Assembly (NCBI GenBank): GCA_027460535.1
Contig: JAPZAR010000027.1
Coordinates: forward strand, 270,001 to 302,000
Direction: 5' to 3'
From: Candidatus Methanoperedens sp.
GTDB taxonomy: Archaea > Halobacteriota > Methanosarcinia > Methanosarcinales > Methanoperedenaceae
Length of the DNA stretch: 32,000 nt
A model generated the notes under the pieces. That model had not been told where the DNA came from. It was given only the letters and a program-made list of their open reading frames with translations, and did not search any database. Below are positions 22-30,531 of this stretch, piece by piece. Both the position numbers and the translations under genes were made by a program. The number at the start of each line of letters is the position of its first letter. Within the stretch, counting starts at the first letter, position 1.

Positions 22-254
22 TATGAAAAACTTTAGGAAAGTTTTATCAAATGAAGGGGATGTTTCACATCCCCTATACGTCATAAAGGGGCGTAACCCT
101 TTATGAAAAACTTTAGGAAAGTTTTATCAAAAACCTTTGAAAAAGGTTTATCAAACGACGGGTATGGCACGCCATACCCGGACACGCCCTCCCGAGGCGT
201 GACTCGGGAAGGGGATGTTTCACATCCCCTATACGTCATAAAGGGGCCTTTATG
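22..254. repeat. Array of concatenated short perfect hairpin modules (mosaic palindromic element)
   Basis: Hairpins at 27-45 and 107-125 (aaaacttt/agg/aaagtttt), 56-74 and 211-229 (ggggatg/tttca/catcccc), 82-105, 131-149 (aaaccttt/gaa/aaaggttt), 159-180 (cgggtatggc/ac/gccatacccg), interleaved 183-201 and 190-209, and 237-254. Exact direct repeats 22-51=102-131 and 53-92=208-247. Confidence 0.85.
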
Positions 255-26499: not shown

Positions 26500-26716
26500 G
26501 GAAGGCGCCGTCCATTAAAATAAAAAACCGCAGATAAAGGCGCCCAGAGTCGCGCCTCTGGAGGGCTCAAAGGGGGAGCCGTGAATGAAAATGACAAACC
26601 GCAGATGAAGGCGCCCAGAGTCACGCCTCTGGAGGGCGTGTACACGTATGCCCGCAGGCATACGTGGGCGCGGAGTCGAGAACCCGCAGGGTTTCGGCAT
26701 GATGAACGCAGATTTA
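26500..26716. repeat. Mosaic hairpin-module repeats (one partial copy and one complete 119-bp composite element at 26597-26715)
   Basis: aaccgcagat[a/g]aaggcgcccagagtc[g/a]cgcctctggagggc occurs at 26526-26565 and 26597-26636. Hairpins lie at 26544-26561, 26615-26632, 26643-26666 (10-bp stem) and 26680-26694. Both termini are identical to those of 28509-28668. Confidence 0.85.
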
Positions 26717-28127: not shown

Positions 28128-28204
28128 AAGCCGAAACTTCGGCTTGCGCAGTGTTGGGGTATGCTCTGCATACCCCTCGTTTGATAAACATTTCCTAAAG
28201 GTTT
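28128..28204. repeat. Three-hairpin module lying in frame inside methyltransferase copy A
   Basis: Hairpins at 28128-28145 (aagccgaa/ac/ttcggctt), 28156-28176 (ggggtatgc/tct/gcatacccc) and 28186-28204 (aaacattt/cct/aaaggttt, one mismatch). The module is colinear with 131-180 on the opposite strand. Confidence 0.8.
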
Positions 28205-28247: not shown

Positions 28248-28348
28248 GGAGTACAGAGAAAGTAGCAAAGAATCAACCACAGAGGACACAGAGTTCACAG
28301 AGAGATGTTGTTTTATCTCTGTGTCCTCCGTGCTCTCTGTGGTTTTTT
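28248..28348. repeat. ~100-bp block with long nested inverted repeat, replacing the motif IV region of copy A
   Basis: The arm aaccacagaggacacagag (28275-28293) faces ctctgtgtcctc[cgtgctct]ctgtggtt (28317-28344). An inner stem is cacagagat/atctctgtg. There is no counterpart in copy B, which has 85 nt encoding ...DLIATHPPYA here. Confidence 0.8.
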
Positions 28349-28508
28349 ATCTCATGCGTCTGATACTCTGAATCGAGCGGCATGTAAACAAAATCCAGCA
28401 TGTTGCGCGCCACCATGACAGCATCAGGATTGATATCCACGCCCACGGGGCGCCAGGAGTTTGCATTCCATCAAAGCTTCCTGAAAAAATGCGGTATTTT
28501 GGAAAAAA

Positions 28509-28668
28509 AACCGCAGATGAAGGCGCCCAGAGTCACGAGCCTCCCGAGTCGCGCCTCGGGAGGGCGCGTCCACGTATGCCTTCAGGGCATACGTGTTGTT
28601 TGGGAGTCGAGAACCGTTAGGTTTCGGTCTGAGAACCCGCAGGGTTTCGGCATGATGAACGCAGATTT
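28509..28668. repeat. 160-bp composite hairpin element inside methyltransferase copy A
   Basis: The left 29 nt (28509-28537) are identical to 26597-26625, and the right 38 nt (28631-28668) are identical to 26678-26715. Internal hairpins lie at 28543-28560, 28571-28595, 28612-28625 and 28633-28647. Confidence 0.85.
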
Positions 28669-30065: not shown

Positions 30066-30128
30066 AAGCCGAAACTTCGGCTTGCGCAGTGTTGGGGTAT
30101 GCTTTGCATACCCCTCGTTTGATAAAAA
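30066..30128. repeat. Hairpin module inside methyltransferase copy B (two of the three hairpins of copy A)
   Basis: Hairpins at 30066-30083 (aagccgaa/ac/ttcggctt) and 30094-30114 (ggggtatgc/ttt/gcatacccc). The third hairpin is absent and an A5 run (30124-30128) remains. Confidence 0.8.
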
Positions 30129-30397: not shown

Positions 30398-30531
30398 CCC
30401 GAGTCGCGCCTCGGGAGGGCGCAGACACGTCAACCGTTGCGCCAGTTGACGTCGCACACACGTATGGCTCCGCCATACGTGGATATCGCTGCGCGATATG
30501 CCCGCAGGGCATACGTGGATTCCCGCTTACG
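30398..30531. repeat. 134-bp hairpin-module insertion splitting the SAM-binding motif of copy B
   Basis: It lies between codon D (30532-30534) and MMGSGTT (30397 downward). Hairpins are at 30398-30415, 30428-30451, 30459-30481, 30483-30499 and 30497-30513. Confidence 0.85.

Follow-up and report, generated by a model that had tools for sequence, protein, structure and literature searches.

Arm Covariation in H3, a REP/BIME-like Palindromic Module of a Mosaic Repeat in Candidatus Methanoperedens

Introduction

The sequence analyzed here, called the window, is a 32-kb stretch (C27:270001-302000) of a Candidatus Methanoperedens genome of 2.9 Mb in 37 contigs. This genome is labeled G000. Loci in it and in related genomes are written as genome, contig and position, and numbers without a prefix are positions in the window. 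The window carries seven hairpins with a gtatg...catac core, a module that we label H3. The stems differ in sequence from copy to copy, with a change on one arm matched by a change on the other. How do the two arms stay complementary? The original prediction offered two answers, a hairpin that is selected or a palindrome that is copied back from one template.

Compensatory change is usually read as proof of a selected RNA structure. It is also common in the stems of the REP, BIME and REPIN sequences of proteobacteria, which are short, GC-rich palindromes, dispersed and mosaic (PMC3116915, PMC2817692). Polymerase template switching homogenizes the arms of inverted repeats and inverts their spacers, with TCC>GGA and GAA<>TTC changes at 10-11-bp arms in yeast (PMC8604942), and a single such event has been proposed to give rise to perfect stems and to restore pairing (PMC8794818).

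Sampling and Alignment

Copies of H3 were collected from 53 Methanoperedenaceae genomes, one per species, and from G000, by the upstream A-module anchor alone and thus blind to pairing. The anchor patterns were CCTCKGGAGGGCG plus about 46 nt, or GGAGGGCG...GAGTCGAGAAC; the final letter B of the fixed-gap pattern drops about one-fifth of sites, randomly. The anchors returned 279 sites. The next module is a B hairpin at 48 of them, something else at 22 and an H3-type sequence at 209, and 198 of these 209 could be placed in register. Two alternative anchors, AACCCTTG..GGATATC and TGACGCCGTG..GGACGCGTCC, yielded no more than 9 and 11 true copies, respectively, and were left out of separate analysis. 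For the formal covariation statistics, 134 distinct H3 sequences were aligned with MAFFT and pairs were counted against 500 shuffles. The repeat census of the genome used k=14; k=11 was uninformative.

The Hairpins of the Window

All seven hairpins lie where they had been predicted (Table 1). A search for GTATG-N4-14-CATAC found six matches in the window, where 0.13 would be expected; no shuffle out of 100 had as many. The whole of G000 has about 35 H3 hairpins of the form cacGTATG(gc/cc/ccc/ccag)-loop-...CATACgtg.

Some details of the prediction had to be revised. The hairpins at 28156-28176 and 30094-30114 are both present but are not independent members, because they go back to a single insertion in duplicated methylase genes. 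The hairpin at 159-180 is present and can be written with a 2-nt loop, but a 9-bp stem and a 4-nt loop describe it better. The gtatg...catac core is shared by the six window matches but is not invariant across the family. Only the central A:T and T:A pairs are without a compensated change, and the conserved part of what had been called a GTATG core comes down to the central AT. In the hairpin at 30497-30513, only the right arm, gggcatacgtg, is complete; an overlap with a gatatcgc/tgc/gcgatat hairpin (30482-30499) truncates the left arm to tatgccc.

Two of the variants have counterparts in other genomes. Positional homologs of the hairpin at 28156-28176 occur in G013 and G031, as GGGGTATGC..GCATACCCC followed by TCGTTTGATAAA. 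The CGGGTATGG haplotype of 159-180 comes after an A module also in G012, G013, G019 and G031.

Table 1. Hairpins, mosaic elements and neighboring repeat sites in the window.
Feature	Position	Strand	Remarks
Mosaic array (A, H3 variant, AT-rich tttgataaa-type hairpins)	100..208	-	reverse orientation
H3 variant cgggtatgg/cacg/ccatacccg	159..180	.	= G000:C27:270192-; adjoins inverted A module (185-208)
Partial element, T unit and A hairpin only	26520..26566	+	upstream of 26596..26715
Mosaic element around H3 26643	26596..26715	+	order T unit, A hairpin, H3, F hairpin, T unit
H3 cacgtatgcc/cgca/ggcatacgtg	26643..26666	.	folds in ssDNA; same hairpin in the same context in G022:C57
H3 variant ggggtatgc/tct/gcatacccc	28156..28176	.	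within the repeat inserted in methylase copy A
Mosaic element (T, A, A', H3, two F-type hairpins, T)	28503..28668	+	inserted in methylase copy A
H3 cacgtatgcc/ttcag/ggcatacgtg	28571..28595	.	
Duplicate of the 28156 hairpin, loop ttt	30094..30114	.	methylase copy B; gene duplication
Element (A, B cacgtcaac..gttgacg, H3, E, H3, start of X)	30398..30531	+	motif I, methylase copy B
H3 cacgtatggc/tcc/gccatacgtg	30459..30481	.	GGC subtype, TNC triloop
H3 tatgccc/gca/gggcata	30497..30513	.	with full right arm to 30517
T-unit sites	26520-26545, 26596-26610, 26700-26715, 28510-28521, 28652-28668		
Heptamer array (CACAGAG/ATCCGTG)	28275-28344		
B hairpin	30428-30457		

A Mosaic Repeat That Houses H3

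H3 is never free-standing. The hairpins, which had been taken as units, proved to be modules of mosaic elements. These are about 60-350 bp long and number about 33 in G000. A typical element opens with a 10-nt T unit, AAACCGCAGAT[GA]AA, followed by the A hairpin (CCMGAG/TCRCGC/CTCKGG) and AGGGCG. Downstream of the A hairpin is a variable chain of further hairpins, namely H3 and the modules B (CACGTCAAC...GTTGACGTG), D (TCAAGGGG/CGCAA/CCCTTGA), E (GATATCGC/TGC/GCGATATC), F (GAACCC/GCA/GGGTTT) and G (GCGTCA...TGACGC). The element closes with a second T unit, GATGAACGCAGATTT. In the element at 26596..26715, the T units are aaaccgcagatgaa at the start and gatgaacgcagattt at the end, the A hairpin is ccagag/tcacgc/ctctgg with agggcg, and the F hairpin is gaaccc/gca/gggttt.

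As ssDNA, the mosaic elements fold far better than shuffles, with z-scores of -3.76 (26596..26715) and -4.0. Copies of 26596-26715 in many related genomes are 90-97% identical between species, and the window's flanking genes are 74-88% identical. The region at 25.8-27.4 kb is syntenic in none of 48 genomes of the same genus, and none of these has the flanks of the hairpin at 26643 joined.

The pattern CCTCKGGAGGGCG-N4-CACGTATG was scanned in one genome per species across 185,579 prokaryote species. All 80 matches listed are in assemblies of Candidatus Methanoperedens, Methanoperedenaceae or ANME-2, or in more broadly labeled MAGs; one among these 80 is labeled Methanobacteriaceae. As far as the scanned sequences indicate, the mosaic repeat is archaeal and confined to Methanoperedenaceae. 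We did not find a published description of it in a literature search.

Several other repeats adjoin the elements. The T units, CGCAGAT[GA]AA, are 10-nt-periodic and bracket the arrays. "Empty" versions consist of tandem T units, some as a long inverted repeat. Further T-unit sites are found elsewhere in the genome (e.g., G000:C14:85423-85485, C25:22241-22288, C31:98053-98123). We considered whether GATGAA might be a 6-bp target duplication that flanks the arrays and rejected this, since the two T units that bracket an array are often unlike, e.g., GATAAA and GATGAA. Two heptamer families, CACAGAG and ATCCGTG, have a spacing of about 10-11 nt, often form inverted arrays next to T units and resemble protein-binding iterons (G000:C11:84344-84397, C21:12580-12629, C11:85850-85900, C27:11714-11843, and the window). 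A sequence of at least four copies, CGTACTATTAACACTTTCGGTCAGC...GGTTGCATATTTTCA, starts right after a T unit, contains hairpins and ends four contigs (G000:C11:270593-270731, C16:16526-16674, C20:73501-73639, C28:41348-41489). An internal copy at G000:C27:~50320-50445 (L042 520-645) is merely a fragment of about 130 nt. We did not find an Rfam match for this sequence at E<=0.01, and a group II intron or another known RNA was rejected as its identity. The B hairpins (CACGTCAAC.., CACGTCGAC.., CACGTAAACC..; at many sites including one in the window) share an outer CACGT...ACGTG frame with H3, and their palindromic interiors differ from that of H3. The common frame with unlike interiors suggests that new module types may arise by replacement of the inner part.

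Complementarity of the Arms

The structure-blind sample of 198 copies contains 2054 stem cells, 2029 of which (98.8%) are Watson-Crick pairs. The stem is perfect in 176 copies, has one mismatch in 19 and has two in 3. Thus, the claim that the stems are always perfectly matched is true of the window only: in the wider sample, about 11% of the copies carry an uncompensated mismatch.

At least two pair types occur at 8 of the 10 stem positions. The pairs are C:G (193 copies) and G:C (3) at p1; A:T (176) and G:C (19) at p2; C:G (178) and G:C (15) at p3; T:A (178) and C:G (19) at p5; G:C (170), T:A (19) and C:G (7) at p8; C:G (117) and G:C (79) at p9; and C:G (174) and T:A (5) at p10. All four pair types are present at p4 (G:C 177, C:G 9, A:T 5, T:A 2). 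The A:T of p6 and the T:A of p7 are without a compensated variant. Given these pair types per position, at least 11 independent double substitutions are needed.

In the alignment of distinct sequences, 98.1% of the cells are paired, compared to 86.5% in the shuffles, none of which (0/500) was as high. Both arms change at 8 of 10 pairs, with 120 double-change cells (28 in shuffles). The covariation score is 0.289, against 0.093 in the shuffles (0/500) and at most 0.084 in slid registers; the H3 copies of related genomes are not independent, so these shuffle figures overstate the significance somewhat, although the margin is still very large. The covariation test that had been proposed on an enlarged alignment thus gave a clear outcome, with the arms ahead of every shuffle and every slid register, and the either/or reading of the original prediction is supported, with the evidence leaning to the DNA side and bearing footprints of copy-back.

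Uncompensated steps do occur, in 25 of the 2054 cells. We found one-arm intermediates such as CACATATG...CATACGTG (A.C), CACCTATG...CATAAGTG (C.A) and CACCTATGC...GCATACGTG (C.C). They are rare and nearly all single copies, and the compensated variants are mostly multi-copy. The outer stem series CAC, CAG, CGG, GGG is compensated at every step. The original prediction would have been weakened by uncompensated mismatches at neutral frequency. Changes that break a pair have a frequency of 0.6% per stem site, compared to 4.8% per site for class-consensus deviations in the 12 nt after H3, and neutral decay of H3 is ruled out by this enlarged sample. The stem sequence itself is not especially conserved, with several positions varying in 8-40% of the copies. 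The constraint on H3 falls on complementarity, with the arms pairing as DNA, and not on sequence.

Locus L026 (G026:C19:12900-16335) has two tandemly duplicated ABC-ATPase-like genes with an insert of A and H3 at the same place in each. One of the two copies carries a one-arm G>C change (C.C mismatch), which is a dated uncompensated step.

Loops and Stem Tips

The loops are the most variable part of H3 and hypervariable relative to the stems, and a part of this variability proved to be orientation flipping. The stem CACGCATGGC bears seven different 3-nt loops, with a constant linker and flank. Within one stem haplotype, the loops form 12 reverse-complement pairs, compared to 1.1 expected from random loops (0/5000); the controls gave 0 reverse-only and 2 complement-only pairs. 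Eight loop inversions are between copies that are identical across the linker, both arms and 7 nt of the right flank. The inversions in identical contexts are GGA/TCC, GCA/TGC and GAA/TTC, and CGCA/TGCG in five contexts. The CGCA/TGCG flips can also be reached stepwise via TGCA or CGCG, both of which were observed. The three-base inversions cannot easily have arisen stepwise.

The 3-nt loops are biased to GNA/TNC (68/89 copies; 13/24 distinct types against 12.5% expected; p about 1e-6). With the closing C:G, such a loop gives GCGNAGC on one strand, which is an extraordinarily stable DNA mini-hairpin (PMC13037366). Stem length next to the loop varies in a balanced way. In 56 copies, the left GCC, GCCC, GCCCC, GCCCT or GCCAG is matched on the right. 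The C-run of the left arm (2-4) equals the G-run of the right arm, and an unmatched extra base is found in only a handful of copies. The half-sites are 3-7 nt apart, and the arms are 9-12 bp long.

Shared Insertion Sites

The insertion site of 30398-30531 (methylase motif I, VLDQ/MVGSGTT) is also filled in G019, G022, G017 and G030, and the same insertion is found within truncated genes in G003 and G029. The insertion splits this motif in at least five species (the window and loci L018, L021, L022 and L023); it is out of frame in four and reads through in frame in G017. Identity across the flanks of this site is 73-93% among five species and averages 87% on the left side and 82% on the right (about 15% diverged). 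We observed no change in the A module (24/24 bases identical) or in the H3 stem (20/20), and substitutions on the order of 16 would be expected in these 44 sites from the divergence of the flanks. The H3 loops at the site do differ between species (ccgca, tgct, tgcg, tgct). A third hairpin at the site, X (gattcccgctcccgaagggtaatcggg), has a different deletion in each species, and this species-specific decay argues that the insertion is old. Independent insertion in each species is still conceivable in the strict sense and, if it took place, would weaken the in situ argument.

In the G000 copy, three additional modules separate A from the terminal H3. The interior of this copy agrees with an array at G000:C11:5090 except for 2 differences, which indicates that a site can have its modules replaced by those of another copy. 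Identical stems, a tgcg or tgca loop and a strongly diverged downstream spacer are also seen at another shared site, which follows a stop codon in G035, G044 and G000:C10. The minimal complete element observed is 82 nt in length, consists of X, H3 and A, and is bounded by CCCGA...TCGGG.

Proposed Template Switching and Alternative Explanations

All three footprints of template switching, i.e., arm homogenization, stem extension and spacer inversion, recur in the H3 family. Arms have been made identical with matched changes, and spacers are exactly inverted with the arms unchanged. We think it somewhat probable that H3 is a palindrome maintained in its perfect form at the DNA level, through template switching from arm to arm together with a requirement for hairpin formation during spread. 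During replication or repair, the palindrome would extrude, or the nascent strand would switch template between the arms, and a change on one arm would then be erased or copied to the other. The same arm-to-arm process could flip the loop and extend the stem into it. Similar switching between dispersed copies may shuffle and homogenize modules via their common CACGT...ACGTG boundaries. Versions that fold well as ssDNA would spread, probably since a putative mobilizing or recombination machinery acts on hairpins. We infer the template-switch events, single-step conversion and the filter on propagation from the footprints in the sequences.

By itself, templating leaves three features unexplained: frozen stems where sites are shared, an invariant central AT and loops biased to GNA. 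Thus, hairpin formation in ssDNA probably also matters for spread. The frozen shared-site stems and the unchanging central AT mean that sequence-level constraint or homogenization from copy to copy must also act.

Selection by itself, on an ssDNA hairpin that serves as a transposase recognition structure of the REP/REPIN-RAYT or IS200/IS605 kind, is the next explanation to consider, and we regard it as possible but on the unlikely side. Compensation would come from ordinary, independent point mutations and would be filtered when copies are mobilized, with arm templating unneeded. The contrast between multi-copy compensated variants and single-copy mismatches is consistent with such a filter, as are GNA/TNC loops and perfect Watson-Crick stems with recognition of ssDNA, and compensatory changes are common in REPINs (PMC3116915). 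However, point mutation and selection do not predict exact loop inversions, nor indels matched on both arms beside the loop, a place where an additional base would carry no cost.

IS200/IS605-type elements insert without target duplication, and the 82-nt element sits between CAG and ATG of the methylase gene in the same manner. Four Y1 (IS200/IS605-type, PF01797) HUH transposase matches were found in G000. One of these genes, C22:79297-79752, is preceded by a T unit and an A module, which lie about 40 nt ahead of its start, and the same junction is present in G022. However, only this G000/G022 copy adjoins a repeat module, and the ends of the other copies are without modules. The ends of the IS200-like copies (TTTCGC..CTC on the left and a shared right end, GGGGTATA..GTGACTGAA) are unlike the repeat modules. 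Y1 homologs are present in 49 of 53 family genomes, including G027, G004 and G028, which are free of the repeat, and none was found at E<=1e-10 in the repeat-bearing G049 and G044. A RAYT-like mobilizer was therefore rejected: the Y1 homologs do not track the repeat over the 53 genomes, and a partnership is not supported. We did not find a transposase gene flanked by repeats in these genomes. At the tnpA locus (G000:C22:79297-79850, L001/L032; G022:C168, L033), the upstream A-type hairpin is ttgcagataaaggcgccagaggtcacgcctctggagggcg, and other copies of the gene are without it.

An RNA-level structure, in which the hairpins act in transcripts as a terminator, 3′-end protector, processing site or non-coding RNA, appears improbable to us. 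It would suit the position of many elements, directly after stop codons or between genes, and their folding much better than shuffles; bacterial REPs are known to stabilize mRNA (PMC3733652). Against it, a search of the whole window in Rfam gave no match except one tRNA. An RNA stem under selection would tolerate and accumulate G.U on the transcribed strand. Accumulation of G.U was seen on neither strand of H3. The 25 mismatches comprise 18 transitions, with 8 G.T/T.G and 10 A.C/C.A, and every wobble is a single copy. Because G.T is no commoner than A.C, there is no wobble tolerance of the RNA type, and the mismatches follow the raw mutation spectrum. The H3 module is found in both orientations within the element. 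The elements also show no orientation bias relative to ORFs, the upstream ORF being co-directional in 11 cases and opposite in 12 (crude ORF calls). The DNA-type GNA triloops are favored on either strand. The absence of a G.T excess and of an orientation bias, together with the GNA/TNC triloops, favors the DNA form over the RNA form.

A duplex palindromic site for a dimeric protein, with half-sites that change together and no hairpin formed, is highly improbable. The dyad symmetry is perfect, the central AT/AT pairs are invariant, the CACGT...ACGTG frame is mostly conserved and the 10-nt-periodic heptamer repeats nearby look like protein-binding arrays. However, at least 8 arm haplotypes coexist in G000 and would need as many protein specificities, the variable half-site spacing and arm length do not suit a duplex site, and loop inversion and GNA loops would be meaningless for one. 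Palindromes made anew by fold-back synthesis (repair of hairpin-capped breaks or snap-back priming), with arrays that grow at the site, might account for variation that peaks at the hairpin tip, loop first and then inner stem, for module families with a shared outer CACGT/ACGTG stem and different palindromic interiors, and for different array lengths at one shared site, but are very doubtful indeed, since hairpin haplotypes recur with the same linkers and neighbors at dozens of loci in many species and were thus copied as units, and for the longer array at the shared site there is a matching array at another place in G000.

Comparison with Known Systems

H3 is a REP/BIME-like palindromic module with quasipalindrome-type mutation footprints in an archaeal lineage. 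Like REP, BIME and REPIN sequences, which are dispersed palindromes of 20-40 bp found in both orientations and in mosaics, the H3 repeat is mainly intergenic, occurs in both orientations, is chained into mosaics and is predicted to fold as ssDNA. The differences are also clear. REP, BIME and REPIN sequences are mobilized by RAYT/TnpA-REP, a Y1 HUH transposase. For H3, a cognate Y1 gene flanked by the repeats and co-occurring with them was not found in the family genomes. REP palindromes have a conserved GTAG or CGTC tetranucleotide at one end (PMC3733652). H3 is without such a head: the 4-nt linkers ahead of the stem are TGTC (59), CATC (29), TGTA (19), CACA (17), CGTC (11) and others, so that CGTC is in a minority only and GTAG is absent. 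REPs number in the hundreds of copies per genome, compared to about 30-35 copies per genome for the H3 repeat (about 35 hairpins and about 33 mosaic elements in G000). The H3 repeat is restricted to the archaeal Methanoperedenaceae, has copies inside genes as well, and chains many hairpin families head to tail between 10-nt T units.

The likeness to quasipalindrome template switching (Ripley model; PMC8604942, PMC8794818) lies in the three footprints named above, in arms of about 10 bp with spacers of 3-5 nt, and in the TCC/GGA and GAA/TTC changes of yeast that are also seen in H3. Quasipalindrome studies deal with isolated events in unique sequence, whereas the H3 footprints recur over a repeat family, with exchange from copy to copy.

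Rickettsia palindromic elements and mycobacterial MIRUs are, like the H3 repeat, small palindromic or repeated inserts within or between genes. They sometimes keep an open frame, as does the methylase copy in G017; most methylase copies are out of frame, however, and covariation of the arms is not a defining trait of those elements. PATEs of archaea are non-autonomous, hairpin-ended derivatives of IS200/IS605 without the usual terminal inverted repeats. The H3 element resembles them at the one resolved junction (CAG/ATG), where a target duplication is lacking, and differs in that the ends of the IS200-like copies of G000 are not those of the repeat modules. In contrast to an Rfam-type RNA family, the hairpins of the window have no match to a curated model, and H3 shows no strand-specific constraint.

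Implications

H3 presents textbook covariation, with all four Watson-Crick pairs at p4, yet every strand-specific test favors DNA. The family thus calls for caution when RNA genes are sought by covariation in repeat-rich archaeal genomes. Because covariation, loop inversions and matched stem extensions are found in the same copies, the family also offers a natural, replicated data set in which the share of templated mutation, as opposed to selection, in keeping hairpins perfect can be measured.

A more speculative view, which we consider a long shot, is that a dedicated hairpin-handling activity (a putative nuclease/polymerase or recombinase) builds and keeps the mosaic arrays of Methanoperedens. 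Hairpin tips would be opened and re-synthesized from the opposite arm, and whole modules would be added or swapped at the CACGT/ACGTG boundaries between T units. If so, the repeat would represent a new kind of mobile DNA, with fold-back copying, and not classical transposition, as its means of propagation and diversification. In H3, we have characterized one module of what is apparently an undescribed mobile repeat in the methane-oxidizing Methanoperedens lineage.
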